A stretch of DNA of 64,000 bases. Source: an uncultured Gammaproteobacteria bacterium (GTDB taxonomy: Bacteria > Patescibacteriota > Microgenomatia > Levybacterales > GWA1-39-11). Location of the stretch: the NCBI GenBank assembly GCA_964472415.1, contig CAYYLC010000002.1, positions 96,470-160,469 of the forward strand, read 5' to 3'. Made by a program: the position numbers and the translations under genes. Each line of letters starts with the position of its first letter. Position 1 is the first letter of the stretch. The notes under the pieces are model-generated. The model was not told the DNA's origin. It saw only the letters and a list, made by a program, of their open reading frames with translations, and ran no database searches. Below, piece after piece: positions 24,307 to 44,851 of this stretch.

Positions 24307-26442
24307 ATGAAAAAGGCGGTTATACTATTCGCGCTTTTTATCAGCGCACTCTTTTATCTTACGAGGGGAAATATCTCCTTTGCCCAATCATATGCTGATC
24401 AAGTTGCGACAGCATCCTCCAACACTGGTAGCCCGCAAACGCTTCCTCTGAACACGAACCCTGATGTGCCTCAAAATCTCTCAACGTATACACAAAGTGT
24501 TTTTATCGAGCTACTGGGCACTGCATCGTGTTTTTTGGGCGGGAAAAATATTATATATGGAGACACGAAATGCCTCGGAATAGATCCTGAGACAAAAAAA
24601 CTTACCTATGTAGAGGATTCCGGAGGTCTCACCGGCATGATGGGAGACATGATCGCCTATACATTTTCTATCCCAGCGTCTTCGTCTGACTATGTGAGAT
24701 ATATTGCGGGTAATTTCGGAATCGCACAAGACACAACCGCCCAGGAAGCTGAAGGGGAAGTAGGCCTCACAAAAGGAGCCGGATTTGACCAGCTCAGACC
24801 GATCCTGCCACTCTGGACCACCATGAGAAACCTCACCTACCTTATGTTTGTGATTGTATTTATCATCCTCGGACTGGGAATCATGTTCCGCCTTCAAATA
24901 GACCCGCGGGCGGTTATGACTATCCAAAGCCAGATCCCGAAAATTGTTATCGCACTCGTTCTAATCACGTTCTCGTATGCCATCGCTGGATTTTTTGTCG
25001 ACATGATGTACCTCTCGCTCTACCTTATTATTGATATCTTTAGCGCTCATGGCATTGAAAAAACCGCATCACTTGCTGGAAATCCACTGGAAGCAGTAGG
25101 CGGAGTTGGCGGCATCGGTGGAATTTCGTGGGACGCCTCAAAAGGAGTCGCAGGAGTTATGAGCAACCTTTTTGATGGAAATACTTTCGCAGAAGTGATT
25201 CGATTTATTATTAATTCAGTCGCCGGAACGCTTTTGGGTGGTGCCATCGGCATGGTCGGGGGTCCCGTAGGAATGATCGTAGGAGGATTGATAGGCGGCA
25301 TTGGAGGAAATCTTCTAGGATTTATTCCTGGCTTAGGAGATCCGTTCACGCTTATTATTGGAGGGGTTGCCTGGCTTATTATCGTCATCGCGATGCTTAC
25401 CGCGCTCTTTCGACTCTGGTTTATCCTGATAAAAACATACATATTTATTCTTGTAAATATTATATTTGCGCCATTTTATATTTTATTTGGGCTCTTCCCC
25501 GGAAGCTCGCTCTCATTTGGCGGATGGGTCCGCTCATTAGTATCAAATTTAGCGGCATTTCCAGTTGTGCTGATGCTTTTTACGCTCGGGAAGGCGCTGC
25601 AGGATGGATTTATTGAGAGTCCTGGCGGATTCACTCCACCCTATGTCGGAGACCCAGGAGACATGAAGATATTTGCAGGACTCATCGGTCTGGGGATTAT
25701 TTTACTCGCACCAGAGGCAGTAAATATGACCAAGTCTATCTTTAAGGCTCCAGACTTCAAGTTTGGCGGTGCGATCGGACAGCCGCTCGGAACAGGACAA
25801 AAGATTGTCGGTAAGACACTGAGCGGAACCAAGAATGCCCTCTGGCATACAAATCCGTACACGAATGAGCCAAGCAGATTTAAGGCCGCAGTAAAAGAAC
25901 AATTCGGCGCAGGAACTGACAAGATTCCCGGCGTACGCAAGGTAAAGGATAAGTTTAATCAAAGATTTCCTTCATATAAAGCTCGACAGCAAGCAAGGGC
26001 AGATACAGCAGCAAAAAGAACCCAGGCAATAGAAAGAGAGTCTGAAAGGCTGAAAACAGAACATCCAGACTGGGGTACAGATCAAATAAGAGAAGATGCT
26101 GAGCGAAGAGTTAGTGAGAATGAGAAAAAAGAACAAGCAGAACAAAAAAACAAAAGCCTCGTGAGAAGAACTCTCCGAAAGGTCATAAGAAGAGGAGAAG
26201 GCGCTCAGCAAGGCGAAGACGAGACAACAACGGCTCCACCCCCATCAGGGCATCAACCTTCCGCCTCACCACATGCATGGAATAAGGAAGATCTTGATCG
26301 ATCAGTTGAAGAAGAATTTAAAAAACGGACAGCTGGTCAACCATACCTTAGCGCCACCGATAAAACACAGCTCCGCATAAATATCCGGGAAGAATTAATA
26401 AAGCGTGGACCAGACACTGACGACACTAGTGGAACCTCCTAA
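24307..26442 (+). CDS. VirB6/TrbL-like polytopic membrane protein (putative T4SS channel component)
   Basis: Signal peptide, ~170-aa exodomain, at least 6 TM helices with glycine-zipper runs (GGAIGMVGGPVGMIVGGLIGGIGGNLLG), and a long charged C-terminal tail, as in ConG/TcpH/TrbL. Confidence 0.45.
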   Translation: MKKAVILFALFISALFYLTRGNISFAQSYADQVATASSNTGSPQTLPLNTNPDVPQNLSTYTQSVFIELLGTASCFLGGKNIIYGDTKCLGIDPETKKLTYVEDSGGLTGMMGDMIAYTFSIPASSSDYVRYIAGNFGIAQDTTAQEAEGEVGLTKGAGFDQLRPILPLWTTMRNLTYLMFVIVFIILGLGIMFRLQIDPRAVMTIQSQIPKIVIALVLITFSYAIAGFFVDMMYLSLYLIIDIFSAHGIEKTASLAGNPLEAVGGVGGIGGISWDASKGVAGVMSNLFDGNTFAEVIRFIINSVAGTLLGGAIGMVGGPVGMIVGGLIGGIGGNLLGFIPGLGDPFTLIIGGVAWLIIVIAMLTALFRLWFILIKTYIFILVNIIFAPFYILFGLFPGSSLSFGGWVRSLVSNLAAFPVVLMLFTLGKALQDGFIESPGGFTPPYVGDPGDMKIFAGLIGLGIILLAPEAVNMTKSIFKAPDFKFGGAIGQPLGTGQKIVGKTLSGTKNALWHTNPYTNEPSRFKAAVKEQFGAGTDKIPGVRKVKDKFNQRFPSYKARQQARADTAAKRTQAIERESERLKTEHPDWGTDQIREDAERRVSENEKKEQAEQKNKSLVRRTLRKVIRRGEGAQQGEDETTTAPPPSGHQPSASPHAWNKEDLDRSVEEEFKKRTAGQPYLSATDKTQLRINIREELIKRGPDTDDTSGTS

Positions 26443-26516
26443 AGAAAGAGGATCAGGTGCCTAGTGACCAAACAGAAAACGCGGAAAATCGATTTGGCGG
26501 AGGGTTCAATACTTTT

Positions 26517-29500
26517 TTAGTCGAACAGGTCATCAAACACATCATCGATAAATATCATAAATGCCGCAGGAAGAACCTCTACTGCTATGTCACCCATGCT
26601 ATGAAGCGCATCCTCCCGGAATAAGTGCCACCGCGTAGTATTTGAGTGCTTCCTGATCCACTCAATATCTTCTTCAGAGAAAAACTGAGAATTTGGGATT
26701 TCAATCTCTTTTCCAGTTGCTGGATCCTCTATATATTGTGGCATAGACCGAAGCGCCTGATAAAATTTTCTTATCGTATGCGCATCCCACCGATCATCAA
26801 CGCTCGCCCTATTCCGGTGCGCCTTGAGCTGCGCTGCAAGCCCGGCCCGGCAGACATTTTTTAAAATTCTTGTTCGCGCATCCTGAGAGTTAAGATATCC
26901 TGCAAACGTTCCATGTTTTTCTTTTGGATTATACTCACCATCCCCTGTCCAAGCCCTTTTTTCTTTTTCATTTCCATCTTCATCTGCTGCCTTATACTTT
27001 AGTTTCCCTGCATACCAATCACGTCGAATAGAACCGATCACTACATCTCCGAACATCGCTTCTGCAAGATACATATCTTTATACTCATATTTTTCGCTTC
27101 CGTCTTTTACCGTACCGTCTTTATTAAATTCCACCGCAGTTCGCACTCTCATGCGCGTTAAAGCTCCATAATTTATCGCGTTGTTTGAAGAAAACGCATA
27201 TCGTCTTTTTTTAATAAATGTATCTTTTACGATTTCCTCAAATTTTGCCCTATCAAATTTCAAAACGCCCCAGTCATTTCGCTTTATGATTTCGTTAAAT
27301 TTGATGTCCTCTGTATCTAACACATCATGCCACACTTCTGACTGACGCTTAATACCGTTTGCTGCCCAGTCAGACTGTGTAAATCGAGGAAATCGCAGTA
27401 CATCGTATAACGCATCTTTCTGCTGCACGAGCCGCTCCTTCAAAGCTTTTTGTTCATCAGTTAAATTTTCATCCTTCGGCAAGCTATAGAGCTGAATATT
27501 TACCTTGTGAATATTGTCAAATACTTCCTGCACTGACTCGCCTGACTCTGTTCGTATCGCAAGCCACATATCAGGAGATAGCATTCGAAATATCTGCATA
27601 TCCTCAGGATTTCCGATAGGACCCGATGTTCTGGAGCCAGATTGACGCTCTCGATAGTACTGCATATACATTTTCGTCCATGCGTCATATCCTCGATAGT
27701 TCGTATCATTTCGCGCAGCAACTCCACTCCACCGTTGCTCCGACCAGGAGTTAATTTCTGCCCATTCCAAATTAATTCGTGACAGTTTTCGGTATTCCTC
27801 CACTGATAAATCTTGCCCATGCCTCTTTTTAAACTTTTCATATTGAGCCTTATCAGATCCTGTATGAAAACCCACAATTTTTGCAGCGGTTTGTTTTACA
27901 ATTTCTCGTACCAACACCTCACTCGTCTCTTCAGGGTTTGCCGATGGGAAAAAATTCAAATATTTTATAAGCGCTTTATCACTCGTTAATTTCCCATTTT
28001 CATCAAAAATAACTGTCCTGATTTTTGTTTGGGGGTCTATGTGATAAATCTTTTCACCTTCAAACCGATAATTTCCGTATTCGGTAAGCTCTTCGTCAAA
28101 ATCCATCCCCTTTATTGCCCGCACTGCATCACGAAAACCTTTTGCTGTATACAAAAGCGCATCAGGGGGCAATATGTTTCGTAAATTTTTCTCGTCTGAT
28201 AAATTTCTATATATTTGATTCATTATAAGAAGCGAGTCTCCTACTCTATTGTCTGCCTTTCCATCAGTATCCCTACTATACTCATCTGCCATCCGCAACA
28301 TATTTGCAAGCGTAGAACCAGATGTGTGATCATTCCTCGAATTTATTTCAACCAGCCTGTCAAACAAGTTAGAGTCGCTTGTCATCACCTGCTTATACGC
28401 CAAATCATTATTGCGCCGCACACCAAATAACCACGCCTCATTAATAACCTCGTTATACAAATGCTCTAATACCTGACCAGTATTTGGATCGCTGAAATAT
28501 CGCTGCTTGTTGTATTTCATTTCTACCAAATTAACTGGCCGAAAGAGTGTCTGAATAGCCACTTTGTCTAACGGACTCATGGGGTCATTCGGATTATCAT
28601 AATGAAGCTCAAGCATTTTATTTCTTACCCATTTCAAAAAGTTTTCTTCCTGAAAAATCACTTTTTTAACCTCCATTTTTTCTCGCCTTCCAGTTTCAGG
28701 ATTTATCTTCTCGACCTCTTCTGTTTCATCTTCAGAGCGAGTAAAAAGCGGATACGGCCCATTCGGAGACCAAATTTTCGCATCATCAGTCGCAATAATC
28801 CACAGTGCAAGCTCGCGGATATTTCCCGGCTCGCGCCCAAATATACTTTCATCAGCAAAATCTATATCCTCGTCAAAACTAAAATTCATCCCTCTTCTGT
28901 TTATCTTCTCTCCTCGCGCTAACCTTTTTGCGGCATCTTTCTCTTCTACACTTAGCTGCCTCTCCATCTGCTCTGTTGCTCTATTAAACAATCTAGACAT
29001 AAATTCACTCACATTCTGCTTGTAGCTATACACATTGTCATCATCATTGAGGCCTTCCCACCTTGTTAACTCCTCCTGAATATCTAGTGGATTCTGCCCG
29101 TAAGCTAAATTCGCCAAGTATCGGACATAGTCATCTTTAACATATGCAGCTTTAAAACGCTTAAACGCATCTTCATCATCCTCTGGAATATTTTGAATAC
29201 CCTCTAAAAATTCCTCATAACGCTTTTTTTCCATATTTGGATCTCCATCTGCTCCGCCCTCTATTGGAGGACTCCCTCGCTCAGCAAGGCTTCGAATTGC
29301 CTCTATCTCGTCTTCTGTGAGGTTCCTTTTCTTTTTTATTTCCTCAACCACCTTTTCCCATGCCCTTTTCGCGGCCTTAACACGATCAGGATCTGGAATT
29401 TTCGGAGCATCTTCTTTTTCTTTTCGCTCGATATCTCGCACTAATGCGGATAATCCTTTTTTCACATTGAGAGCCTCCCCGCTCGTAATTTTTCTCAATC

Positions 29501-30347
29501 GTTCAGAATATTCATCTCTATCTGGAATATCTCCTAATAACAGCGAAAGCATCAACTCCCCAGCTTTTCCACTCATTACCTGTCTTAAAGATTCCGCATC
29601 GATTTTTTCTGTTGAAGTGAGAAACGCATCGAATCGCTTTGGTTCATTTACGATTTTTTCAATCATCTGTATCTGACTCTCAAATCGCTTTGCACTTTCC
29701 GTAGTGCTTGAAAGATTTTCGCCCCGCATTGCTCTACCAAATTCCTGTTCAGTAAGTTTTCGACCAAATGCGTGCTCAAAAACAACCCGTGACGCCTGTG
29801 CCTCCTCAGCTGATAATCCTCTCTTTTTTCGCAGTGCCACAATCGCAGAAACGTCCTGCAATAATTCTTTGTCTTCAGATCTTGCCTCACCGAGCCGCTC
29901 TTCGACGACAACCTCATTTAAATACGCTGAAAAATTTCTGGCCCAGTTATCCGAAACCATCCCAAACTGCACACCTTTAGTAAGATCACCCTGGACACCT
30001 TCTAGAAATTTGTCGTCAATCTTATTTTGCCTCCCCGCAATTTGGACTTTCTTTGCTAATTCTTCTAAATAGGAGTTGTCTTTGAATCTATTTATGTCAA
30101 ATCTTGCAAACCCTCCTGCGGGCGCATCATTACCCATAAATCCAGGCTCTCTTTCGTCCCCTTTTTGCCGTTGAGATTCAACGCGTGATCTTGTTTCTCC
30201 CGCTTTATCCTGATGCTTTCCCCTCCTCTGTACAATTTCGGCGATTCTCGCTTCAGGATTTTTACTAACTGATCGTTCTGATTCTGCTTCCATAATGCTC
30301 CTACTTACAGGATATGTCAGCTCGGATGTATGTGTCAATCGCTCCAT
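26517..30347 (-). CDS. Giant hypothetical protein (1276 aa)
   Basis: Uninterrupted 3.8-kb ORF, highly charged, no TM or recognisable catalytic motif. Confidence 0.6.
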   Translation of the reverse strand: MERLTHTSELTYPVSRSIMEAESERSVSKNPEARIAEIVQRRGKHQDKAGETRSRVESQRQKGDEREPGFMGNDAPAGGFARFDINRFKDNSYLEELAKKVQIAGRQNKIDDKFLEGVQGDLTKGVQFGMVSDNWARNFSAYLNEVVVEERLGEARSEDKELLQDVSAIVALRKKRGLSAEEAQASRVVFEHAFGRKLTEQEFGRAMRGENLSSTTESAKRFESQIQMIEKIVNEPKRFDAFLTSTEKIDAESLRQVMSGKAGELMLSLLLGDIPDRDEYSERLRKITSGEALNVKKGLSALVRDIERKEKEDAPKIPDPDRVKAAKRAWEKVVEEIKKKRNLTEDEIEAIRSLAERGSPPIEGGADGDPNMEKKRYEEFLEGIQNIPEDDEDAFKRFKAAYVKDDYVRYLANLAYGQNPLDIQEELTRWEGLNDDDNVYSYKQNVSEFMSRLFNRATEQMERQLSVEEKDAAKRLARGEKINRRGMNFSFDEDIDFADESIFGREPGNIRELALWIIATDDAKIWSPNGPYPLFTRSEDETEEVEKINPETGRREKMEVKKVIFQEENFLKWVRNKMLELHYDNPNDPMSPLDKVAIQTLFRPVNLVEMKYNKQRYFSDPNTGQVLEHLYNEVINEAWLFGVRRNNDLAYKQVMTSDSNLFDRLVEINSRNDHTSGSTLANMLRMADEYSRDTDGKADNRVGDSLLIMNQIYRNLSDEKNLRNILPPDALLYTAKGFRDAVRAIKGMDFDEELTEYGNYRFEGEKIYHIDPQTKIRTVIFDENGKLTSDKALIKYLNFFPSANPEETSEVLVREIVKQTAAKIVGFHTGSDKAQYEKFKKRHGQDLSVEEYRKLSRINLEWAEINSWSEQRWSGVAARNDTNYRGYDAWTKMYMQYYRERQSGSRTSGPIGNPEDMQIFRMLSPDMWLAIRTESGESVQEVFDNIHKVNIQLYSLPKDENLTDEQKALKERLVQQKDALYDVLRFPRFTQSDWAANGIKRQSEVWHDVLDTEDIKFNEIIKRNDWGVLKFDRAKFEEIVKDTFIKKRRYAFSSNNAINYGALTRMRVRTAVEFNKDGTVKDGSEKYEYKDMYLAEAMFGDVVIGSIRRDWYAGKLKYKAADEDGNEKEKRAWTGDGEYNPKEKHGTFAGYLNSQDARTRILKNVCRAGLAAQLKAHRNRASVDDRWDAHTIRKFYQALRSMPQYIEDPATGKEIEIPNSQFFSEEDIEWIRKHSNTTRWHLFREDALHSMGDIAVEVLPAAFMIFIDDVFDDLFD

Positions 30348-30438: not shown

Positions 30439-31758
30439 ATGTCGCTTACTCCATTAAAATATTTTGAGTCGTTGTATCCTGAAAACACTCGAGAAAAAGA
30501 AATCCGAGAATATCTCGATTTTTTAAAAAAAGGGCTCTCAGTACAGGTTATCGGACTTCCCGGAATAGGAAAAAATAATTTACTTCGCCTGCTTGCATAC
30601 AATATCGATGCCAGGCGATATCACCTAAAAGAATATGAAAAATTTATGCATTTTGTGTACATCGACTCTGCTGAGGCGAAAAACAGGCCACAGATAGACC
30701 TTATTAAATTGATTCTTTCATCAATCGCATTTTCTCTAGGCGAGAGGAGTATGCTTGATGAATCACTAAAAATAAACACCCTCCTCCAAGAAGGTGTCAG
30801 CCTGAATGACGAATTTCTTATATTCCAGTATCTAAAAAAAGCGATAGATTACCTTACAATAGAAAAAAAGCTTTCCGTAGTTCTACTATTTGATAGATTT
30901 GATACGATCGCACCAAATCTTACTGAGGATTTCTTCTCAAACCTAAAAACGCTTCGCAATAACTCAAAATATCGATTTGGCGTTGTGTTTTCTCTCAAAA
31001 GACCGCTTGAAGAAACTGTTGATCCGCGCCTCATTTCAGATTTTTCCGATATCATTGCAAAGAACGAAATTTATGCATCGCTCTCTGACCCCATTGCGCT
31101 CAAATTCCGCACAGAATATATAGAAAAAGCTGCCAGAAATGCGCTCTCAAAAGATCTCCGCGAGAAAATCATTACGCTCACCGGCGGTCATGCAAAACTC
31201 ACCAAGCTCGCCTTTGAAAAAATCGTTTCTGAAAATAAACCCATAGATGATCTAAAGAAATACCTATTCAACCAACCTACTATAATAAGTGCACTTAATG
31301 AGCTCTGGGAGAGCTTGCTACCGAGCGAAAAATCTGCACTAAAAACCAGCTCAGCTCCCGATGACTCATATCTCGTAAAATCAGGCTTAGTTAAAAAAGG
31401 AAAAATTGTAATCCCACTCTTCTCAGAATTTATCGAAGGAAAAGATATCGAGACAAGCGAAAAAATAACATATGACAGCATAAAAAATGAAATAATAAAA
31501 GGAGACACTTCTATTTCGCATCTACTCTCTTCTTCTGAATTTAAACTCTTGAAATTTTTTATTGAGCACAACGAAAAAATTCTTACCAAAGATGAAATTA
31601 TCTCTATTATCTGGTCTGATCAAAGAACGCAAGAAGGAGTTACTGACCAAGCGCTTGACCAAGTCCTCTATAGGCTTCGGAAAAAAATTGAAAGAAACCC
31701 TAGTAATCCTCAATTTATCCATACTATAAAAGGCACGGGATATAAATTTACGAGTTAA
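30439..31758 (+). CDS. P-loop ATPase fused to C-terminal OmpR/PhoB-type winged-helix DNA-binding domain
   Basis: Walker A VIGLPGIGKNNLLRLL and Walker B-like VVLLFDRFD. C-terminus LTKDEIISIIW...ALDQVLYRLRKKIE...IHTIKGTGYKF matches trans_reg_C. Confidence 0.6.
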   Translation: MSLTPLKYFESLYPENTREKEIREYLDFLKKGLSVQVIGLPGIGKNNLLRLLAYNIDARRYHLKEYEKFMHFVYIDSAEAKNRPQIDLIKLILSSIAFSLGERSMLDESLKINTLLQEGVSLNDEFLIFQYLKKAIDYLTIEKKLSVVLLFDRFDTIAPNLTEDFFSNLKTLRNNSKYRFGVVFSLKRPLEETVDPRLISDFSDIIAKNEIYASLSDPIALKFRTEYIEKAARNALSKDLREKIITLTGGHAKLTKLAFEKIVSENKPIDDLKKYLFNQPTIISALNELWESLLPSEKSALKTSSAPDDSYLVKSGLVKKGKIVIPLFSEFIEGKDIETSEKITYDSIKNEIIKGDTSISHLLSSSEFKLLKFFIEHNEKILTKDEIISIIWSDQRTQEGVTDQALDQVLYRLRKKIERNPSNPQFIHTIKGTGYKFTS

Positions 31759-31798
31759 TTTCTTGACTTTATAGCAACTCCCCTCATATCATAAATAT

Positions 31799-33268
31799 AT
31801 GAAACGATTCCTCGCACTACTGGGTGGATTTTTATTTTCCTTTACACTCTGTGTCGCATTTCTTCCTCCTCAAAGCTCCGAAGCGCAACAAGAACCAATC
31901 TCCCCAGAGACGTCAGAAAATACTGAGACATCAGAAGACACACCTACCACAAACTGTGGTGGTGAAAACTGGACTATTGACCCCTGCCCACTAGAAATTG
32001 ACGGAAATACAGAGAAAGTTACGATCAAATTTTTTGGTCTTGATGAAGACGTAGACTGGCGCACCTGCTCTATCCGAAAAGGGTGCGATTTGGCACGAGA
32101 CAAAGCAAAAGAAATAGGGGCATTTGAAAATGGAGTTTTGACCATTGTAGTCTGTGGCGCAAACGAAGGAAAACTAAAAGAAGTAGGGGATGAGGGATGT
32201 GGCGATGATGACTACTTTCACGAAGGACGCGTGTATCAGATGGCGCTCTTTGAAGATGAAGAGCAAGAGATAAAAGGACCCATTGCTTCATTTTTTGTAA
32301 ATCACTATTACCCCAAAATAGCCGTTAACAACGGCGCAAGTAGCAATGGCATCCTAGAAGGAGCAAATAGTTTTCTCGAGGTAAAAGTGTTTGGAGACTT
32401 ACGCCGAGGCGGCGGCAATCGCAATAACTATCAAATAGTCGTTGAAGGAAAGGATAACTATGGAAACACCTACAAGCAAGATGAATGCATAGAGGTTAAA
32501 AGTACAGAGGGCAATTCAGCATTTTTTTCCAGGAATCAAGATAAGGAGGGCGAAACTGGAAGATCCCTCAATAAAGGAAAATACGTTATAAAAGTAAATG
32601 AACAGGTCAATGAAGGCACACTCGGCAAGCTCAAGACACTGGCAGACAAGTGTAACGGTGGCTTCACCTACTGGCATATCAACATCGAAATTGATGAAGT
32701 CGGAAATATCATCGGCACCCCCCCCTTCTGCTCCCCAAGCGAAACCACTGGTATATCAATTGATAATGATGTATGCATTCAAGATCCAAATATAAGCGAC
32801 GTTGGAAAATATAAAGATTTTATCGATTCGCTCTTTGAAGGCAGTGAAGTTCCGCTTCCGTGCGCTGACACTCCAGAGAATGTAGCAGGCAAGGGATTTT
32901 GTGGCATGGTAGATACCGCAATCGGCACCATCCCCACAAATTTCCAGGGCTTTGTAAATAGACTCTTTACGATCGTTCTTTCTGTCGCAGGCGTATCAGC
33001 ACTTGGCCTCATCATCTATGGCGGGTATACTTATATGACCTCTCGAGGCGACACTGAAAAAATCAAACATGGGCGAGAAATCATCACAGCTGCCATTATC
33101 GGACTCTTGTTTATCATATTTTCTTTTGTAATACTACAAGTAATAACCGGAGAGATTTTACGAATTCCAGGATTTAACAATCCAGAATATAGCCCAGAGA
33201 CTGGAGTGGATAGGGTTGATGATGGAACGGTGCCAGGAAGCGAACTGCCACCAGAACTATTTCAATAA
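31799..33268 (+). CDS. VirB2/TrbC-like pilin-domain protein with ~400-aa N-terminal extracellular extension
   Basis: Signal peptide, Cys-containing exodomain, then C-terminal two-TM module LIIYGGYTYMTSRGDTEKIKHGREIITAAIIGLLFIIF that shares the signature of the three downstream pilin-like ORFs. Confidence 0.5.
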   Translation: MKRFLALLGGFLFSFTLCVAFLPPQSSEAQQEPISPETSENTETSEDTPTTNCGGENWTIDPCPLEIDGNTEKVTIKFFGLDEDVDWRTCSIRKGCDLARDKAKEIGAFENGVLTIVVCGANEGKLKEVGDEGCGDDDYFHEGRVYQMALFEDEEQEIKGPIASFFVNHYYPKIAVNNGASSNGILEGANSFLEVKVFGDLRRGGGNRNNYQIVVEGKDNYGNTYKQDECIEVKSTEGNSAFFSRNQDKEGETGRSLNKGKYVIKVNEQVNEGTLGKLKTLADKCNGGFTYWHINIEIDEVGNIIGTPPFCSPSETTGISIDNDVCIQDPNISDVGKYKDFIDSLFEGSEVPLPCADTPENVAGKGFCGMVDTAIGTIPTNFQGFVNRLFTIVLSVAGVSALGLIIYGGYTYMTSRGDTEKIKHGREIITAAIIGLLFIIFSFVILQVITGEILRIPGFNNPEYSPETGVDRVDDGTVPGSELPPELFQ

Positions 33269-33270
33269 TT

Positions 33271-33603: not shown

Positions 33604-33612
33604 AACTCCTTA

Positions 33613-34131: not shown

Positions 34132-34152
34132 TAAAACCATCTCCTCAAAATT

Positions 34153-34807: not shown

Positions 34808-34808
34808 C

Positions 34809-36851: not shown

Positions 36852-36979
36852 ATTATTCTCCTTGCCCCTTTTCACACTACCCTCAAATTATCACATAGTT
36901 TGCACTACTCTGATACGCTTGATTTGAAAATTTTCACGGGATAAGCTGTGTAGGTACGCCAAAGGCGTTATCATTTGTT

Positions 36980-38098
36980 ATGGAAAATCATCCAATACCG
37001 CAAGATGTTACAGGGTTCAAGTTCCGACTCATAGGGTCTGTCACCATCAAACAATTTCTCTATATTCTGGGTGCAGGAGCCTTTTGTGGCATAATATTTA
37101 TCTTGCCTATCTCCTTTTTAATCAAACTCCCACTCATCACTTTTATTGCAGGGATAGGAGCAGGTCTTGCATTTCTCCCTATTGAAGGGCGCCCTATGGA
37201 CGTTATGCTGATGAATTTTCTGAAAGCACTCCCTGCTGAGAATCGATATATTTTCCGCAAACAAGGAACGCAGACACTCTTGCACAAATACTTCACCCTC
37301 CAGGAGCCCAAGACTGTGGTAAAAAAGGAAGGACCTACTCAAAAGGATAATCGTCGCGAACTCCTTATAAATCGACTTGTACGTAAAAGCGCACCATATA
37401 GAGCTGACGACTCCGAACGCAAGCAAATTACCAACATTCAGGGAATTTTTGATAATGCTGACACGCCGGTTACTGGACTGCCCGGAGTAAATACAAGCCC
37501 TCTTGCCCAACGCGCGTATAGTACGGTCGTCAAACCACCAAGCTCTCCTGCGCAAAAGGACGCCACTAAGCCCATTGCAACAATCCAACCTGCCCAAAAA
37601 ACGCCGCCGCATCCTATTGTCCAACCAGAACCACCACACGCACCCATAGATACACTTCCTAAGCCAAATCATGTGCAGTCACCACAAAAAATACACACCC
37701 CCATTTCTTCAACGAGTGCAAAGACTGTTGCACCAGAAAATCAGATCGCAAGTGGCTTTCCCCACATCCCCGACACGCCGAATGTAGTGCTCGGTATTGT
37801 AAAAGATCCACGGGGAAAAGTGCTTCCCAATATCATTGTTGAGGTGGTTGACGAAAACAAGAATCCTGTTCGTGCATTTAAAACAAATGCACTCGGACAA
37901 TTCGCCTCAGCAACACCTCTTTCTGCAGGAAAATACTTTATGATGCTTGAAGACACACGACACATCCATGAATTTAGCCCGATTGAGATTCAGATGAAAA
38001 ATGAAATCTTCCAGCCACTTGAGATAATTTCTACTGACCAACGAGAAAAACTGCGACAAGAGCTCTTTGGCAGTGCGCACCCAGCAACCCAACAATAA
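36980..38098 (+). CDS. PrgI/VirB3-like membrane protein with Pro-rich linker and C-terminal beta-sandwich-like domain
   Basis: N-terminal ~100 aa (FKFRLIGSVTIKQFLYILGAGAFCGIIF...IAGIGAGLAFLPIEGRPMD) resembles the two-TM VirB3/PrgI module that precedes VirB4 in Gram-positive T4SS. Then a PxxP-rich region and a VVLGIVKDPRGKVLPNIIVEVVDENKNPV...GQF carboxypeptidase-regulatory-like motif. Confidence 0.45.
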   Translation: MENHPIPQDVTGFKFRLIGSVTIKQFLYILGAGAFCGIIFILPISFLIKLPLITFIAGIGAGLAFLPIEGRPMDVMLMNFLKALPAENRYIFRKQGTQTLLHKYFTLQEPKTVVKKEGPTQKDNRRELLINRLVRKSAPYRADDSERKQITNIQGIFDNADTPVTGLPGVNTSPLAQRAYSTVVKPPSSPAQKDATKPIATIQPAQKTPPHPIVQPEPPHAPIDTLPKPNHVQSPQKIHTPISSTSAKTVAPENQIASGFPHIPDTPNVVLGIVKDPRGKVLPNIIVEVVDENKNPVRAFKTNALGQFASATPLSAGKYFMMLEDTRHIHEFSPIEIQMKNEIFQPLEIISTDQREKLRQELFGSAHPATQQ

Positions 38099-38104
38099 CA
38101 ACCT

Positions 38105-38737
38105 ATGGCAAAGAAGCAAATAAAATCAACAACACAAGGCTTTACTGAGATTGTCGATATCGTAGAAGATGTCGTGCTTTTAAAAAACAAGCGCGCGTGT
38201 ATGCTTATAGAGGTGTCTTCTGTAAACTTTTTTCTGCTTGCAGCAGACGAACAAAATGCGCGCGTGTATGGCTACATGTCCCTCATAAACTCTCTCTCTT
38301 TTGCAATCCAGATCTTAATCGTTTCAAGGAAAGTGGACATGGATACATACATTGAGACGATTGATAAGAAAATATCCACTGTTCAACACCAGCAAACAAA
38401 GGAGCATTTGATGTATTACAAAGAATTTATTCTAGAATTAGTAAAAGAAGAAGGGCTTTTAGATAAAAAAGTATACCTTGTTATCCCCTACTCATACCTT
38501 GAGGGGAACTCGGGCGCTGCGCAAAAAAACAAAACAGGGACAGTTAGCTTTGGCGACCAAGCAAAAGCAGCGCTGCTTTCTAAATCTCAGCTAATAATGT
38601 CTCAGGTGCAACGCATGGGACTAACTGCAAGACGCCTTGGCCACGAAGAACTTATTAAGGTGTTTTATGAAGTCCTCAATGACGACCAAATAAACCTGGA
38701 TTTTGAATCGAATGATATAAAAAATATAATTCTATAA
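38105..38737 (+). CDS. Hypothetical protein resembling the VirB4 N-terminal domain
   Basis: IVDIVEDVVLLKNKRACMLIEVSSVNFFLLAADEQNARVYGYMSLINSLSFAIQILIVSRKVD resembles the conserved start of TraC/VirB4 N-domains. Lies between the VirB3-like and VirB4 genes. Confidence 0.4.
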   Translation: MAKKQIKSTTQGFTEIVDIVEDVVLLKNKRACMLIEVSSVNFFLLAADEQNARVYGYMSLINSLSFAIQILIVSRKVDMDTYIETIDKKISTVQHQQTKEHLMYYKEFILELVKEEGLLDKKVYLVIPYSYLEGNSGAAQKNKTGTVSFGDQAKAALLSKSQLIMSQVQRMGLTARRLGHEELIKVFYEVLNDDQINLDFESNDIKNIIL

Positions 38738-38740
38738 TTT

Positions 38741-40999
38741 ATGTTTGGACTCGGCAAAAAAACACAACAACAAACACAACAGGTACCCCCGACTAATACC
38801 CCTGTGCAACAAAATCCGCAACAACAAGGACAGACTCCTACTACCCCAAACCCGCAACCCCCTCACCAGACACCTCCTCCGCCACAAGTACCCCAAAAAG
38901 GGCGAAAGCCTTCTCCGAACGCACATATGGAAGAACTCAAGAATGGATCTGTTTCCATTGTGGACATCATTGCCCCATCTTCAGTGGAAGTAGATTTCCG
39001 GCACATTCGCGTCGGAGACAAATTCTATCGTACCTTTTTTGTGGTTGACTATCCTCGCCAAGTTTCTCCGAACTGGCTGTCTATCCTTATCGATCACAAA
39101 GAGACAATGAACATTTCTATGTACCTATATCCGGTAGAAAGCAAAGATGTGCTATCAAATCTACGACGAAAGATCGCTGAAATGGAGGCAACACTCCAGT
39201 CAGATGCCCAAAACGGTGTCATCCCGGACCCAAAAATCCAAGCCTCTCTTGAAGACGCGATCTCGCTCCGTGAAGAACTTGCCCGAGGACTTGAGCGGTT
39301 TTTCCAGTTCGGGCTCTATGTCACAATTTCCGCAGAGAACATTGAAGCACTCAATATGAAGTCAAAAGAACTTATCTCACTACTTGCCTCAAACCTACTC
39401 GTCGTAAAGCCCGCAACACTCCAAATGGAAGAAGGCTTTAAAACCACCCTGCCTCAAGGAAATGATAAGCTTCTCATCACTCGCAACATGGACACAACCT
39501 CTGTTGCATCCACATTTCCATTCACCGGCTATGAAATCTCTCATCCCAATGGGATACTATACGGAATAAACACGCTTAATAACTCACTGGTTATCGTAGA
39601 CAGATTTTCTCTTGAGAATGCAAACGAAGTTGTGTTTGGAAAATCTGGATCTGGAAAGTCTTTCCTCATAAAGCTCGAACTCATGCGTCAATATATGTTT
39701 GATGCAGAAATCATCATCATCGATCCAGAGGACGAATACAAGACGCTCTGTCAATCACTCGGCGGGGAATATATTACATTCTCTAAAGATTCGGAGGTAA
39801 AAATAAACCCATTCGCGCTTCTTCTTGACGACACCTCTGAAAACCAACTGAGCTTAAAGATTCTTGCAGTCCATGGCCTATTAAAGTCCATGCTTGGCGA
39901 AATGACGGCAACCCAAGAAGCGATTCTCGACCGTGCAGTAGTTCTTGCCTACAAACAAAAAGGCATTACACCAAATCCGTCAACCTATAAAAATGAGCCG
40001 CCAATTTTAGAAGATTTATATAAAACCCTCCTCAACATGGAGGAGGCAGAGGCAAAGGAGCTTGCATTCCGTCTCGAAAAATATGTAAAGGGAGGCTTTT
40101 CAGGCCTTTTCAACCACCAAACAAACTATGATGTCCACAATAAAATGACCGTATTCTCTCTCAGGCAGCTTGAGGATGTGCTGAGGCCAATTGCCATGCA
40201 TGTTATTTTAGATTTTATATGGTCGCGTGTCAGGACGAAACTCAAAAAAAGAATTCTCGTCGTTGATGAGGCCTGGTATATGATGCGCTACCCAGACTCT
40301 GCCGCATTTCTTCAAGGAATCGCGAAGCGCGCACGAAAATACTATCTAGGCGTGACCACGCTCACACAAGACATCCAAGACTTTCTATCGAGTGATTATG
40401 GACGTGCAATTCTCTCCAACTCTTCAATTCAAATCCTTCTCAAACAAGGCTCTTCAGAAGTGGAAACGCTCGCCAAAACACTAAACCTATCAGGCGGAGA
40501 GAAACAATACCTACTAACCGCACAGGTCGGAGAAGGGCTACTCTTTGCGGGACAGAATCATGTAACCGCACAGTTTATTTCTTCTCAATTCGAGTATGAT
40601 CTTATCACCTCCAAACCTCAAGACATATTGAATCAGCAATCCGAAGATACTCCGCCTCCGCCACCACTAGAACCAGAACCACTTACCCCTTCACAGGGTG
40701 ATACCTTCGCTGTGCCTGGCCAATCAAGCACACCGCAACAACCTTTCCCGCAAACACCAAGCGCTCCTCCTCTACCATCCACCACTCCAGAAGTGGGGCT
40801 AAATGCAAATGTCATGCCAGACCAACTTCAACCACAAACAACTGGGATCAATACCACAAATCCACAGAGCACCCCGCCCATACCTCAAAGAGGCTTTACA
40901 GCGCCCACACAAAACGTGCTAGAAGGCTCGCAAGTTCCCGCCCAACCGCAACAATCGATAACAAACAACTCTGCCACAGATCAACCCACTCGTTCATAA
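38741..40999 (+). CDS. virB4: VirB4/TrbE/CagE-family T4SS ATPase
   Basis: Walker A VVFGKSGSGKSFLIK, IIIIDPEDEY, Walker B RILVVDEAWYMM, GVTTLTQDIQDF. N- and C-termini are Gln/Pro-rich low complexity. Confidence 0.85.
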   Translation: MFGLGKKTQQQTQQVPPTNTPVQQNPQQQGQTPTTPNPQPPHQTPPPPQVPQKGRKPSPNAHMEELKNGSVSIVDIIAPSSVEVDFRHIRVGDKFYRTFFVVDYPRQVSPNWLSILIDHKETMNISMYLYPVESKDVLSNLRRKIAEMEATLQSDAQNGVIPDPKIQASLEDAISLREELARGLERFFQFGLYVTISAENIEALNMKSKELISLLASNLLVVKPATLQMEEGFKTTLPQGNDKLLITRNMDTTSVASTFPFTGYEISHPNGILYGINTLNNSLVIVDRFSLENANEVVFGKSGSGKSFLIKLELMRQYMFDAEIIIIDPEDEYKTLCQSLGGEYITFSKDSEVKINPFALLLDDTSENQLSLKILAVHGLLKSMLGEMTATQEAILDRAVVLAYKQKGITPNPSTYKNEPPILEDLYKTLLNMEEAEAKELAFRLEKYVKGGFSGLFNHQTNYDVHNKMTVFSLRQLEDVLRPIAMHVILDFIWSRVRTKLKKRILVVDEAWYMMRYPDSAAFLQGIAKRARKYYLGVTTLTQDIQDFLSSDYGRAILSNSSIQILLKQGSSEVETLAKTLNLSGGEKQYLLTAQVGEGLLFAGQNHVTAQFISSQFEYDLITSKPQDILNQQSEDTPPPPPLEPEPLTPSQGDTFAVPGQSSTPQQPFPQTPSAPPLPSTTPEVGLNANVMPDQLQPQTTGINTTNPQSTPPIPQRGFTAPTQNVLEGSQVPAQPQQSITNNSATDQPTRS

Positions 41000-41002
41000 C
41001 GC

Positions 41003-42343
41003 ATGACTAACATAACTTCTGACATGATGCCCCCGGGAGCAAATATGGGTGATGACCCGCCCGAAGAGAAAGACGCGCAAAAGAAAAAACGTGGCGACAA
41101 CATCGCAGAGCGGTATGTTAAGAAAAAGATTCGAAAAACTGCCACAAAAACCGCAAAGGGGATTGGGAGGCGAATTACTACCCGCATGGCCACTCAAGCA
41201 GCAGTAAGCGTAGTACGAGGAGCAGCAACAGCAGTCGTAAGCTCTCCGGTGGGATGGATTATCGCAGCAATTATTATTGTAATTATTATTCTCATGTTTT
41301 TCTTTTTTAACATGAGCGGATCAAACAATAACCCGGATGAGTCTGAGACAACTCCGGGCATTGGCCAAACCACACCACCTATCCCTGGATTTACGCTTCG
41401 TCTAGAGGGTCCAGAGGGTGTTGAAAATGGCACCCTCATTCGATACATCATAACCTACACCTATAACGAATCAGGCACTGTCCCGCTTGACAGTATTACG
41501 ATTTACAATGACATCCCCTCCACCGTCTCGTTTGTGAACGCAACGGGAAACTATTCCAGGTCGGGAAACACTATTTCATGGCCACTCGAAGGACTGTCCA
41601 ATTCAGGTTCTTTTGAGATAACGTTTCGGCCCTCAGGTGATGATGTCTTCGTAATTAACAAAGCATACGCCCGAACTACGGTATCCGTAATTGGTGGAGG
41701 AAATCTAGGCAACCTCCTCCCGGCAATATCTGGCGCATCAACAACCGCAGACGAGCAACAACAAGCGATTGCAAATATCATAAAATCAAACCCAGAACTA
41801 CTCAACGCATACCAAACAGGTGAGGCTGCAACAGGCGTTCCCTGGCAAATTCTTGCAGCACTTCACTATCGTGAAGGGAGCCTCGACCCCAATGTTTCGC
41901 TTGCAAGTGGAAGGAGGATCGGCGAAAACGAGCCAGACATTATTCGCGGGGGAGGATGTAGCGCGACATATACCCCAGGAGAACCAGTTGCGTCTGGCGG
42001 AGGATGCATCTTTAGATCATTTGCCGACAGTGTTATTTGGGCAGCAAATCACTTCAAGGGAAAGGTCGGAGGACAAATGCCCACCACCTACCAAGGGCTC
42101 TCAAAAGCGCTTGCTTGCTACAACGGCTGTCCAGGAAATGCGAATTGTCCCAATGGAACTCCTTATAACGCTTGCCCTGCACGATTTGTTGGAGATGACA
42201 ATCCTTACGTAATGAATTATTACGACCAAATGCACGCATCGATGTATATTATTTATTGCGCTGACTTAACTCGCTGCAACCCTCCAGCTCGAGACCAAAG
42301 ACCAGGAACACTCTCTGTTATACTGGGATTAACGCGATTTTAA
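41003..42343 (+). CDS. Membrane-anchored protein with putative cell-wall hydrolase-like C-terminal domain
   Basis: Basic N-terminus, one TM (IIAAIIIVIIILMFFFF), a beta-rich middle, and a C-terminal Cys-rich domain (QILAALHYREGSL...GGGCSATYTPGEP...GGGCIF). Confidence 0.4.
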   Translation: MTNITSDMMPPGANMGDDPPEEKDAQKKKRGDNIAERYVKKKIRKTATKTAKGIGRRITTRMATQAAVSVVRGAATAVVSSPVGWIIAAIIIVIIILMFFFFNMSGSNNNPDESETTPGIGQTTPPIPGFTLRLEGPEGVENGTLIRYIITYTYNESGTVPLDSITIYNDIPSTVSFVNATGNYSRSGNTISWPLEGLSNSGSFEITFRPSGDDVFVINKAYARTTVSVIGGGNLGNLLPAISGASTTADEQQQAIANIIKSNPELLNAYQTGEAATGVPWQILAALHYREGSLDPNVSLASGRRIGENEPDIIRGGGCSATYTPGEPVASGGGCIFRSFADSVIWAANHFKGKVGGQMPTTYQGLSKALACYNGCPGNANCPNGTPYNACPARFVGDDNPYVMNYYDQMHASMYIIYCADLTRCNPPARDQRPGTLSVILGLTRF

Positions 42344-42352
42344 ACCATCATC

Positions 42353-42919
42353 ATGAATAAAAAATACATTCTTATCACCCTTCTCCTCGGCACTCTTTTG
42401 CTGCTTATCTTTTTAACCATTTTTTTCTTATCACGGGTCGTTCAACCTACCACCCCGCATGATATACACCCAACGCCAACACTAATCCAAACTATTTCTA
42501 TCACAGGAAAGCCGGACAGTACGCTTGAGGTCCCAACAAATTCTCCCGAGGAAGGCGGAGGAGTCGATTTGGAAGCTGACAGGACGCAACAATCAATTCA
42601 GGAAATCGAAAAAATTAGGCCATATCTTCCGTATTATGAAACGCTCTCACTCTCAACAGGAATAGATGTAGACGTATCTATCCCAAATAATCTCGTAGAC
42701 GCACGGCCATGGATACTTACTGTCTATATAAATGGCATTGATTTCCAGATTCCTGAAAATCTTCCTGCATACGATCTCTACAGAACATCATTTCGAGAAG
42801 CAGCCGGCAAAACCCTCACATTCTTACAAGAAAATGGTGTGAACACTTCCCTCGTCTTTATCAACTGGGGAAATGAATCGTATGTCCAAGAGCGCGCTGA
42901 ACAATGGCTAACAGAATAA
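42353..42919 (+). CDS. Bitopic membrane protein (VirB8-like topology)
   Basis: N-terminal TM then ~150-aa exodomain. Size and topology fit VirB8-like T4SS components. No sequence motif. Confidence 0.35.
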   Translation: MNKKYILITLLLGTLLLLIFLTIFFLSRVVQPTTPHDIHPTPTLIQTISITGKPDSTLEVPTNSPEEGGGVDLEADRTQQSIQEIEKIRPYLPYYETLSLSTGIDVDVSIPNNLVDARPWILTVYINGIDFQIPENLPAYDLYRTSFREAAGKTLTFLQENGVNTSLVFINWGNESYVQERAEQWLTE

Positions 42920-44133
42920 TAACTATCAACTCTTTATCCTTTTTTGTTTTTATGCTGTTTTTTTTGTGCACTCTCTTTTTTATACAAATTCCGAAAGCAC
43001 TATCTCAGACAAACTCTATTACCATTATCGGTGATTCTCTTACTGTTGGGGCGAGAAGTGCACTCCAGGAGGCATATCCTAACGCTACCATAGATGCAGA
43101 GGTCGGTCGCCAGTGGGCTACTGGCATATCAGTCCTGAGAAATCTTAATTCGCAGGGATCAGTTGGAAATACCATTATTTTTCCCCTTGGATCAAATGGG
43201 CCTGTTACCAAAGGGGATATTGACACCCTAGTAGGCCTAGCTAATGGAAAAGCCATAGTTCTTATCACACTCTTTACGACAGATCAAAGCCTTGCCTGGA
43301 TTCAGCCTAACAACACAATTATCAGAAATGCCGCACAGGAGTATTCAAATATAAAAATTGCAGACTGGGCGAGTATCGCCTCCAACAACCCATCTCTTAT
43401 TAGCTCTGATGGTATCCATCCAACCCTTGAAGGTTACACCCGACTTGCCCAGACCATCATAACCACTACTGGGCAAGGATCATCAAATTCAAAGGGCTCG
43501 AACAATACAGGATCACCTTCTCTTTCGTACCGAAGCGACAGCAATGAAATACGAACACGGGTCGGTAATCCGAAAATAGCAGCTCCAGGCGCAGACAGCC
43601 TCGTGGGAGTAGGTCTTACCATAAAACAAGCGTATGACACTTGCTCTGGAGGAGATTCACATCAACCTCCTGCCTCACTCTCTTGTCTTCAAAACCAATT
43701 AAGAGATTCTGGGTTTTCTGAAACGCAAATCAACGCTTTCTCACAGACATATCCGACAAGACTCGTAGGTTCCCCAATTGGACGAAGCGCGAGCTGTATT
43801 CAATGTCTCGGATTTGCTGGGCTCGTTCTTTCCACATACACAAACGATGGAGGCACTCTTCGGTACGCGAGCCCTAGTCAGATGACTGGACTGCAATCGT
43901 TTTCAGCCGGAGGAATTGTCTTTCAAAGACTTCCCTCAGGAACGAAGCCACAACCTGGAGATGTCGGCGTTCACGGTGGGGGAACCTTCGGACATATTGT
44001 ATTTGTGATCGAGAGTGTTGGAAACGTCCGATTTAAAGCATTAGAATCAAATGGAAATGCAGATTGCCGGATAACCGACAATCGGGATATACTGATAGAT
44101 AACTATGGATACACATTTTTCAGACAACAATAA
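42904..44133 (+). CDS. Secreted bifunctional hydrolase: SGNH/GDSL domain + CHAP domain
   Basis: TIIGDSLTVGA (GDSL block I) ... DGIHPT (block V). C-terminal CHAP-like catalytic Cys (SCIQCLGFAGLV) and His (FGHIVFVIES). Confidence 0.6.
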   Translation: MANRIITINSLSFFVFMLFFLCTLFFIQIPKALSQTNSITIIGDSLTVGARSALQEAYPNATIDAEVGRQWATGISVLRNLNSQGSVGNTIIFPLGSNGPVTKGDIDTLVGLANGKAIVLITLFTTDQSLAWIQPNNTIIRNAAQEYSNIKIADWASIASNNPSLISSDGIHPTLEGYTRLAQTIITTTGQGSSNSKGSNNTGSPSLSYRSDSNEIRTRVGNPKIAAPGADSLVGVGLTIKQAYDTCSGGDSHQPPASLSCLQNQLRDSGFSETQINAFSQTYPTRLVGSPIGRSASCIQCLGFAGLVLSTYTNDGGTLRYASPSQMTGLQSFSAGGIVFQRLPSGTKPQPGDVGVHGGGTFGHIVFVIESVGNVRFKALESNGNADCRITDNRDILIDNYGYTFFRQQ

Positions 44134-44851
44134 TTACAACACAAACGAAAGTCCGAGTTTTATCCGAAGGAATCTTCCTTTTATTTTAGTTGGAGCGCTG
44201 TTGTTACTTATCGCCACTGTCTTTCTTGTCTTAACGTTTTTTGCAAAAAATACTACAGACCCTCACCCTCACACACCTGATAATATTAATACTACTCCTA
44301 CTGCAGTGCAGCCCATAAACTTCTCTATAACTAACACGTCACCAGCAGACAACGAATCAGATGTTTATCCGGGAGAAATATCCATAACATTTACCACAAA
44401 CACTCCCCTTCTCTCTCAAGAAGATTACTTATTTCGCATGACTCCATCCCCAGAAGAAACCCCTATTATTCAAAACGAATTCCCCTCGCAAGAGATATCC
44501 TATGGAATTGTGGGAAATCTTTCCCCCGACACAACATATACCGTAGGTATTTATAATACTTCAAGCCTTCTGGTCCACTCCTGGTCATTTACCACATCAA
44601 GTGAGACGCCAGAGTCATCCTCTCGCGCAGTAAAGCTTGAACAAGAGAACGCAATAAGAAATTTTTATCCACTATTCTATGACCTTCCCTACGAAACAGA
44701 TACATTTAAAATCGACTATACTGACAGGCTTACATTAGAGGTTATTATGTATTCTGGAAACCAAACAAACACAGCACCTGCAATAGAATCCTGGATACAA
44801 GACCGCGGCGTAGATCCTGCAACCCACACGATAAACTATATTCAAAACTAA
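44105..44851 (+). CDS. Bitopic membrane hypothetical protein
   Basis: One N-terminal TM (LPFILVGALLLLIATVFLVLTFF), Thr/Pro-rich exodomain. Confidence 0.4.
   Translation: MDTHFSDNNNYNTNESPSFIRRNLPFILVGALLLLIATVFLVLTFFAKNTTDPHPHTPDNINTTPTAVQPINFSITNTSPADNESDVYPGEISITFTTNTPLLSQEDYLFRMTPSPEETPIIQNEFPSQEISYGIVGNLSPDTTYTVGIYNTSSLLVHSWSFTTSSETPESSSRAVKLEQENAIRNFYPLFYDLPYETDTFKIDYTDRLTLEVIMYSGNQTNTAPAIESWIQDRGVDPATHTINYIQN

Follow-up and report, generated by a model that had tools for sequence, protein, structure and literature searches.

The 64-kb stretch analysed here (the window: positions 96,470 to 160,469 of contig CAYYLC010000002.1) carries, next to dnaN and dnaA, a gene cluster that we identify, with a probability of about 0.9, as a genuine Patescibacteria-type type IV secretion system (T4SS), adjacent to the chromosomal origin, equipped with pilin genes and devoid of a relaxase. 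As a whole it is very probably best explained as a T4SS descended from the conjugation machinery of monoderm bacteria (mating-pair formation type FATA, MPF-FATA), which now stands outside any mobile element. The gene set and its conservation, its fixation in the chromosome and the absence of mobility genes are direct observations. Systems of this kind were published between 2023 and 2025, and since the finding and interpretation of the earlier note on this DNA, which had described a minimal Gram-positive-type T4SS-like cluster, coincide with these accounts (PMC10633639, PMC12102498), the novelty is low: the window is a clear example and no discovery, and it leaves the current picture unchanged. 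The additional points are incremental, namely a putative, structure-based VirB1 analogue with domain swapping, a candidate VirB6, the presence of VirD4 within the cluster in sister lineages, and a recurrent small domain.

From 30439 to 44851 the window holds 14 plus-strand open reading frames (ORFs), closely packed or overlapping (ORF map), and all the ORFs of the cluster are intact (ORF map and topology scan). Its GC content is 0.43-0.48, against 0.35-0.41 in the flanks. The components on which the identification mostly depends, their immediate neighbours and the chromosomal anchor are these (TM, transmembrane segment).

31799-33268, plus strand: N-terminally extended pilin, 489 aa (T4SS_pilin 28.5 bits at residues 382-449)
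33271-33603, plus strand: VirB2-like pilin paralogue, 110 aa, two-TM hairpin (T4SS_pilin 23.5 bits, just under the cut-off)
33613-34131, plus strand: VirB2-like pilin paralogue, 172 aa, with signal peptide (T4SS_pilin 29.5 bits)
34153-34455, plus strand: VirB2-like pilin paralogue, 100 aa (T4SS_pilin 38.5 bits)
36980-38098, plus strand: PrgI/VirB3-like membrane protein; Pro-rich linker, Ig-like domain at the C-terminus (Pfam)
38105-38737, plus strand: TrsD-like protein, 210 aa, homologous to the N-terminal domain of VirB4 but encoded by a gene of its own (NCBIfam, synteny)
38741-40999, plus strand: VirB4 ATPase (Pfam and PDB matches)
41003-42343, plus strand: putative membrane-anchored wall hydrolase, VirB1 analogue (TM, DUF11-like beta-sandwich, predicted Cys-rich lysozyme-like/lytic transglycosylase domain)
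42353-42919, plus strand: 188-aa bitopic membrane protein with the recurrent C-terminal domain (TM 6-24; no Pfam or NCBIfam match)
42904-44133, plus strand: 409-aa secreted or anchored wall-modifying enzyme, OatA-C-like SGNH plus CHAP/NlpC-P60-like peptidase (PDB sequence matches)
44105-44851, plus strand: 248-aa bitopic protein with a TM (26-44), a Big_5 Ig-like domain and the recurrent C-terminal domain (residues 171-247)
44848-45942, minus strand: dnaN (Pfam DNA_pol3_beta domains)
45943-46072: putative oriC spacer
46073-47413, minus strand: dnaA (Pfam Bac_DnaA)

All window ORFs of at least 100 aa were scanned against Pfam, and those left unannotated by Pfam against NCBIfam. The VirB4 protein matches P-loop_TraG (126 bits), AAA_10 (47 bits) and DUF87 (41 bits), and among solved structures its ATPase domain is far closer to the Firmicute VirB4 4ag5 (E 3.4e-47) than to the Gram-negative TrwK (E 2.3e-6), and its assignment to the MPF-FATA lineage is by proxy, from the best solved relatives. 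The PrgI/VirB3-like protein passes the PF12666 cut-off (28.7 against 27 bits), whereas its CarboxypepD_reg match (23.2 bits) stays under threshold. In NCBIfam the TrsD-like protein matches TrsD (E 1.1e-5) and, over profile positions 100-288, VirB4_plasma (E 1.1e-9), in each case far under the curated cut-off, and a precomputed Pfam annotation relates it weakly to TraC-like proteins. A VirB4 scan limited to one genome per species yielded 337 relatives; the best are up to 83% identical and come from Levyibacteriota, Microgenomates and Patescibacteria metagenome-assembled genomes (MAGs). We retrieved 80 of the loci (numbered with the prefix L below) with flanks of about 10 kb and compared them by tblastn of the window proteins. 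VirB4 was found in all 80 of them, TrsD in 77 and PrgI, mostly full length, in 76, and the gene order PrgI-TrsD-VirB4 is kept in 76-77 of the 80.

The four consecutive pilin domains form paralogous two-helix hairpins that share a conserved S-x-G-D loop and 25-38% identity in the alignment. The PF18895 (T4SS_pilin) cut-off being 26.6 bits, three of the four exceed it. The 489-aa protein combines a signal peptide, a Cys-containing extracellular head of about 350 aa and a C-terminal VirB2-like hairpin (TM 389-407 and 428-446); it has no match among PDB sequences, and its full-length architecture is kept in L001, L003, L004, L014 and L016. Pilins were matched in about 20 of the 80 loci; this count, like those given below for the regulator and the VirB6-like gene, is constrained by sequence divergence and by the flank length of 10 kb. 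Every ORF named in the earlier note is present at its coordinates. Its VirB4, its PrgI/VirB3-like protein and three of its four VirB2-like paralogues are above the profile cut-offs, and the fourth paralogue, which is under, aligns with the others; the VirB6-like, SGNH and CHAP assignments do not reach their thresholds. The description as a minimal Gram-positive-type system holds, with a Firmicute structure nearest to the VirB4 ATPase and the best relatives in the lineages just named.

How firmly is the cluster tied to the chromosome? Its last ORF, ending at 44851, overlaps the 3' end of dnaN. In the compared loci dnaN was located in 58/80 and dnaA in 58/80, always convergent with virB4, and the same order with its dnaN/dnaA junction recurs across VirB4 identities of 50-83% (58/80 species-level loci). 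The order PrgI-TrsD-VirB4 ... dnaN-dnaA therefore marks a fixed part of the core chromosome and not an integrative and conjugative element (ICE), which bears out what the earlier note had concluded from the junction in the window. Moreover, no relaxase, Rep_trans, HUH, MOB, integrase, transposase or tyrosine/serine recombinase match was obtained at E <= 0.01 among the ORFs of 100 aa or more that the 64-kb window contains (Pfam and NCBIfam), extending to the whole window the absence of relaxase and integrase that had been claimed for the cluster. The repeat search for flanking att-like direct repeats found no exact pair of at least 18 nt, and imperfect pairs at chance level only. A decaying ICE or plasmid remnant lying fortuitously beside the origin would suit the conjugative ancestry of the T4SS genes, a cluster GC content slightly above that of the flanks and a VirD4 gene bracketed by tRNA genes, but it would hardly leave ORFs all intact and tightly packed, nor an identical order and dnaN/dnaA junction in 58 of the 80 species-level genomes. 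With this synteny, and with neither integrase nor att repeats in the window, we rejected such a remnant, which is barely credible; the claim that the cluster is not simply an ICE stands.

The position of the origin rests on the GC skew, whose sign switches at about 46 kb, and on the AT-rich dnaA-dnaN spacer with its DnaA-box-like motifs, because the DnaA-box count over the whole window (20 observed, 17.3 expected) is no better than chance. Promoter and terminator scans were uninformative. Two further observations concern the surroundings of the origin. The 13-kb T4SS operon (31799-44851) converges on dnaN, its end being some 1 kb away from the likely origin, and by GC skew it is head-on to the leftward fork; the published explanation of the T4SS location near dnaA is gene dosage, and no discussion of a head-on orientation was found in the sections consulted. 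Three perfect DnaA boxes (TTATCCACA) lie on the plus strand at 16595, 18044 and 18494, that is within 2 kb, near smpB and ComFC-like genes and far from dnaA.

These features are those of the T4SS described in Patescibacteria. In Southlakia epibionticum, the T4SS cluster SEML1_0006-0019, pilin genes included, is essential for epibiotic growth; its subunits are Gram-positive-like, and it contains no recognisable relaxase or coupling protein (Wang et al. 2023, PMC10633639). A phylum survey (Quinonero-Coronel et al. 2025, PMC12102498) reports a monophyletic Patescibacteria VirB4 clade related to MPF-FATA, widespread TrsD, PrgI/VirB3, VirB6 and VirB2-like genes, and pilin arrays of 2-11 genes that are abundant in Microgenomatia and have a mean identity of about 25%. 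It also describes type IV coupling protein (T4CP) genes as mostly distant from virB4, relaxases as nearly absent, dnaA and dnaN as enriched near virB4 in Microgenomatia and Paceibacteria, the distal t4cp of Southlakia as not essential, and VirB6 and VirB1 homologues as scarce in Microgenomatia. A 2025 review of T4SS nomenclature restates the points of the survey (PMC12857230). A 2024 perspective (PMC11665869) calls the function of the Patescibacteria T4SS 'completely unknown'. A recent preprint on a patescibacterium kept in culture, which consumes the RNA of its host, describes tubes, possibly T4SS pili, that penetrate the host envelope (10.64898/2026.06.21.733656).

Compared with this clade, the window shows the same TrsD and PrgI/VirB3 genes directly upstream of VirB4, a divergent pilin array and hydrolases just downstream of virB4. 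It likewise has no relaxase, a T4CP away from virB4 and a chromosomal location beside dnaA/dnaN, the last explicitly reported for Microgenomatia in the survey, where the mean of about 25% also agrees with our pilin identities of 25-38%. The differences are lineage-specific details only: the number of pilin genes (four, one of them with a 350-aa head domain), the pairing of a presumed Cys-rich lysozyme-fold hydrolase with an SGNH+CHAP enzyme, and the presence in the cluster of a 1276-aa protein and of an AAA/winged-helix regulator. Furthermore, where the survey finds VirB6 and VirB1 scarce, the window offers candidates for both, through structure and synteny and not through hidden Markov models (HMMs).

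The resemblance to the MPF-FATA systems (pCF10 Prg/Pcf, pIP501 Tra, pGO1 Trs, Tn916/ICEBs1) extends to VirB4, whose ATPase domain is nearest to a Firmicute structure, to PrgI/VirB3, to TrsD as in pGO1, to a polytopic candidate of the VirB6 type, to a VirD4-type T4CP and to multi-domain hydrolases that join a glycosidase to CHAP/NlpC-P60 (PrgK, TraG, CwlT). Unlike them, the window system lacks a relaxase, oriT and integrase and is non-mobile, it has VirB2-like pilins, which are absent from the monoderm conjugative systems, and we found in the window neither a PrgB-type adhesin nor a recognisable VirB8-like PrgL/TraM. With the Agrobacterium VirB/VirD4 system and the diderm MPF-T group it shares two-helix VirB2-type pilins, VirB3, VirB4, a VirB6-like protein, VirD4 and, putatively, a lytic transglycosylase of the VirB1 type. 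However, its VirB4 is only distantly related to theirs (E 2e-6 to TrwK), and the window has no outer-membrane core VirB7/9/10, no VirB5 and no VirB11; the cell is presumably monoderm. The ComB system of Helicobacter pylori and the crenarchaeal Ced system are, like this one, chromosomal relaxase-less relatives of T4SS put to non-conjugative use, and are possible precedents for import. But ComB has no VirD4 and depends on ComEC, Ced is built on the unrelated CedA proteins, and both are without counterparts to the pilin array and the dedicated wall hydrolases of this cluster.

The gene directly downstream of virB4 probably encodes a peptidoglycan hydrolase of the VirB1 type that belongs to the system, found by structure and synteny and missed by HMMs. 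The membrane-anchored putative hydrolase of the earlier note gains, on structural grounds, a predicted lysozyme-fold/lytic transglycosylase domain. This Cys-rich domain, in which Glu291 is invariant, gave nothing meaningful against PDB sequences, and it follows virB4 in the window and in five other loci (L001, L013, L017, L058 and L061); L069 matches weakly and over a part of it. The first gene past virB4 nevertheless always encodes a membrane-anchored protein, and several relatives retain the DUF11-like region, while the C-terminal wall-hydrolase domain is exchanged, for SLT_3/SLT in L014, L019 and L040 and for Peptidase_M23 in L005 and L075. Such a swapped hydrolase domain at a fixed position fits a wall-breaching role under diversifying pressure.

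The second enzyme of the interval is the one that had been described as an SGNH+CHAP hydrolase. Both Pfam models, Lipase_GDSL_2 and CHAP, remain under their cut-offs, but residues 38-189 match 6vjp, 6wn9, 5ug1 and 5ufy (E 6e-15 to 1e-11), which we take to be C-terminal SGNH domains of OatA, an O-acetyltransferase acting on peptidoglycan; the CHAP part (residues 299-377) is still weak, with the endolysin 8h1i at E 0.03. A homologue was seen in a single one of the 80 loci (tblastn). More generally, a plus-strand ORF block of 1.9-6.2 kb occupies the virB4-dnaN interval in 53 of the 54 loci in which both genes were located, and it is made of one large protein followed by one to four small ones. 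The 188-aa and 248-aa proteins of the window belong to these small ones. A joint homologue query with the two returned 8 matches, all on the 248-aa part and none for the 188-aa protein; PF13205 (Big_5) is carried by 5 of the 7 homologues of the 248-aa protein. Their C-terminal domain of about 80-100 aa is linked to 39 more copies, in small bitopic proteins of the same interval in about 30 loci, which makes 41 proteins in all with the pattern LPY.T..Y.I.Y ... W(L/I)...G(V). This family was built by iterative hmmsearch with TM-free domains; a family built with the full-length small proteins was discarded, as drift along the TM helices had recruited unrelated proteins. The two window copies have no Pfam match, and by sequence the domain has no match among solved structures.

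The remaining genes that we associate with the system, or that lie within the cluster, are the following.

9497-11884, plus strand: VirD4-like coupling protein (T4CP), here distal to the cluster, with tRNA genes on either side (Pfam)
24307-26442, plus strand: candidate VirB6 (tentative), 711 aa (topology, position, homologues)
26517-30347, minus strand: 1276 aa, soluble and highly charged; conserved at this position and divergently oriented to the regulator gene
30439-31758, plus strand: putative cluster regulator, 439 aa, AAA-like NTPase N-terminal region and C-terminal OmpR/PhoB-type winged helix (Pfam)
34499-34807, plus strand: 102-aa soluble protein (no Pfam or NCBIfam match; same-strand homologue in L007 only)
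34809-36851, plus strand: 680-aa largely charged, tail-anchored protein (single C-terminal TM 640-658)

A VirB6 role for the 711-aa protein is plausible from its topology (signal peptide, polytopic helical core, charged C-terminal tail) and from its recurrent position, a homologue being found 5-10 kb upstream of virB4 in 24 of the 80 loci. It has 459 homologues, none of them annotated, some named Levybacteria or Patescibacteria. One of 42 aligned homologues matches TrbL PF04610 (E 2.2e-6), and the family profile gave nothing meaningful against PDB sequences. The VirB6/TrbL-like call made earlier thus keeps its topology, its location and one TrbL-matching homologue, but the window protein itself does not pass the HMM threshold.

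The VirD4-like ATPase that the earlier note had placed some 12 kb away is confirmed at 12.4 kb from the start of the cluster and 27 kb from virB4: TrwB_AAD_bind (34.9 bits) and TraG-D_C (24.3 bits) are both above cut-off, and TrwB (1e9r) is matched at E 2.4e-5. In at least 12 distant Microgenomatia loci (L039, L042, L044, L045, L053, L055, L057, L067, L074, L075, L077 and L079) a full-length VirD4 homologue (34-38% identity) is encoded on the minus strand within the cluster. It lies 4-5 kb upstream of virB4 and fills the slot that the 1276-aa gene has in the window. This embedding of VirD4 and of the VirB6-like protein in sister lineages argues for a functional link and for VirD4 belonging to the system despite the 27 kb. 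The tRNAs that bracket the VirD4-like gene are two tRNA-Ser genes (8984-9158, plus strand) and a tRNA-Ile with the anticodon TAT (UAU) (11981-12053, plus strand). The latter is uncommon in bacteria, where AUA is usually decoded by a lysidine-modified CAU tRNA.

Several accessory proteins of the cluster have no detectable relatives of known function (the 1276-aa, 680-aa and 102-aa proteins), in agreement with their having been called uncharacterised. For the 1276-aa protein we found no Pfam, NCBIfam or PDB sequence match and no predicted TM segment; it has 7 close homologues (49-100% identity), all unannotated, and weaker relatives at the same position in L001, L003, L007, L008, L017 and L040. 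The 680-aa protein, without a Pfam or NCBIfam match, has same-position homologues in L007, L008 and L014. The putative regulator matches Trans_reg_C with 69.7 bits, AAA_16 and AAA_35 weakly, and in NCBIfam the DNA-binding domains only of PhoB/VirG/CadC/HilA-type regulators; it stands beside the pilin array in 19 of the 80 loci (tblastn).

Some points weigh against the preferred explanation of the cluster. The TrsD and CHAP assignments depend on sub-threshold matches. No VirB8-like component was identified, and the candidates for it, the 188-aa and 248-aa proteins, have no sequence match to solved structures. The proposed VirB6 has no Pfam or NCBIfam match of its own, and although the top Foldseek hits of its AlphaFold2 model (pLDDT 71) in the PDB are R388 TrwI/VirB6, they are non-significant (E 0.17-0.8, TM-scores 0.3-0.4). 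The absence of a relaxase covers 64 kb of the genome, and one could lie elsewhere. The sequence is silent on pilus production, on cargo and on the direction of transport. Finally, the placement in Patescibacteria comes solely from the names given to the best relatives, many of which are labelled 'uncultured Gammaproteobacteria'. This last label is carried by public MAGs whose T4SS loci are 70-83% identical to the window (L001, L003, L004 and others); since sister records are named Levyibacteriota or Patescibacteria, these would seem to be bulk taxonomic mislabels. The bacterium that carries the cluster is, we presume, a monoderm member of an ultrasmall lineage of the candidate phyla radiation, Microgenomatia/Levyibacteria-like. 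The small-genome episymbiont with a T4SS repurposed beyond classical conjugation, as the earlier note had imagined it, is supported by these relatives, by the dnaN/dnaA synteny and by the lack of relaxase, integrase and att repeats.

What would such an apparatus do? We tentatively favor a pilus that bridges to the host and serves for export, a proposal to which we give somewhat less than even odds. VirB4, TrsD, VirB3 and the VirB6-like protein would pull the pilins out of the membrane and assemble them into a VirB2-type pilus or tube, while the lysozyme-fold and SGNH+CHAP enzymes would open peptidoglycan, be it the cell's own or the host's; O-acetyl groups, which would otherwise keep muramidases from acting, could be taken off or transferred by the OatA-like SGNH domain. 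Contacting or piercing the host cell that the episymbiont needs, the tube would then form a physical bridge, a step for which VirD4 would not be needed. Once engaged, VirD4 would supply the channel with substrates from the cytoplasm, proteins being more likely than DNA. Specificity would be set by the parts that face the host: the fast-diverging pilins, the hydrolase domains that are swapped and the small proteins of the surface. In Agrobacterium, biogenesis of the VirB2 pilus proceeds without VirD4. Pilus biogenesis independent of VirD4 would explain why, in Southlakia, the cluster is essential but the T4CP dispensable.

The main rival, which we regard as rather unlikely, is a conduit working in reverse, as in ComB or Ced: the tube would tap the host and import its DNA or RNA, or other macromolecules which the episymbiont, with its reduced metabolism, is unable to make. 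It would be in keeping with the lack of a relaxase in the window and with a T4CP that lies 27 kb from virB4 here and that Southlakia can do without, the rest of its cluster being essential (PMC12102498). As ComEC-dependent competence is also dispensable in Southlakia (PMC11665869, PMC12857230), nucleotides must enter by another route, and the 2026 preprint combines host RNA uptake with envelope-penetrating tubes (10.64898/2026.06.21.733656). The wall-hydrolase module would suit import equally. However, a VirD4 homologue is conserved, and lies within the cluster in sister lineages, and no gene for a nuclease, a nucleic-acid-binding protein or a ComEC-like channel was detected in the cluster with Pfam and NCBIfam. 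To our knowledge, the only role established for VirD4-type coupling proteins is that of receptor for substrates to be exported, and no T4SS with a VirB2 pilus has been shown to import RNA, both of which count against uptake. Cryptic DNA transfer is, like the ICE remnant, unlikely, and we would call it highly improbable that the apparatus is still a DNA-transfer machine, conjugation-like or for chromosomal exchange, acting independently of a relaxase or with an unrecognised one, possibly the 1276-aa protein or another unannotated product. Its ancestor was a conjugation machine, as the VirB4 structure match and the survey indicate (PMC12102498), its T4CP matches a DNA-binding-domain family, several large cluster proteins have no detectable family, and proximity to the origin would, speculatively, suit an origin-first chromosomal transfer. 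But no HUH, Rep_trans, MOB or tyrosine/serine recombinase signal emerged from any ORF at the threshold given above, the survey counts no more than 109 relaxases, in 103 of its Patescibacteria genomes and seldom near virB4 (PMC12102498), and that the T4SS is essential for growth in Southlakia is unexpected of a conjugation apparatus.

Beyond the export bridge, a bolder and, as a whole, unlikely scheme can be drawn. A VirB2-type 'feeding tube' would pierce the host envelope by means of swappable hydrolases and import host nucleic acids; the fast-evolving pilins, the hydrolase domains and the proteins with the ~80-aa domain would be determinants of host range, the last replacing VirB8, and the 1276-aa protein would be a cytoplasmic partner or a cargo.

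The T4SS of Patescibacteria is among the few machines shown to be essential to the epibiotic lifestyle, in a phylum to which much of bacterial diversity belongs, and the window, a clean and complete Microgenomatia example, could guide experiments. The leads that it offers are the putative VirB1 analogue missed by HMMs, the divergent VirB6 candidate, the VirD4 evidence from sister lineages, and the diverging surface parts as candidates for host specificity.

The rest of the window has the housekeeping content of a reduced genome. It includes a nickel superoxide dismutase (153-617, minus strand), a ComFC-like competence protein (17697-18407, minus strand) and a class II ribonucleotide reductase (19821-23372, minus strand), accompanied in this context by NrdR and a PduO-type cobalamin adenosyltransferase. 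Finally, the ORF at 2248-3111 (minus strand) encodes an unusual fusion of an ATP-cone, an Mrr-type restriction endonuclease and an AF1548-like C-terminal domain.

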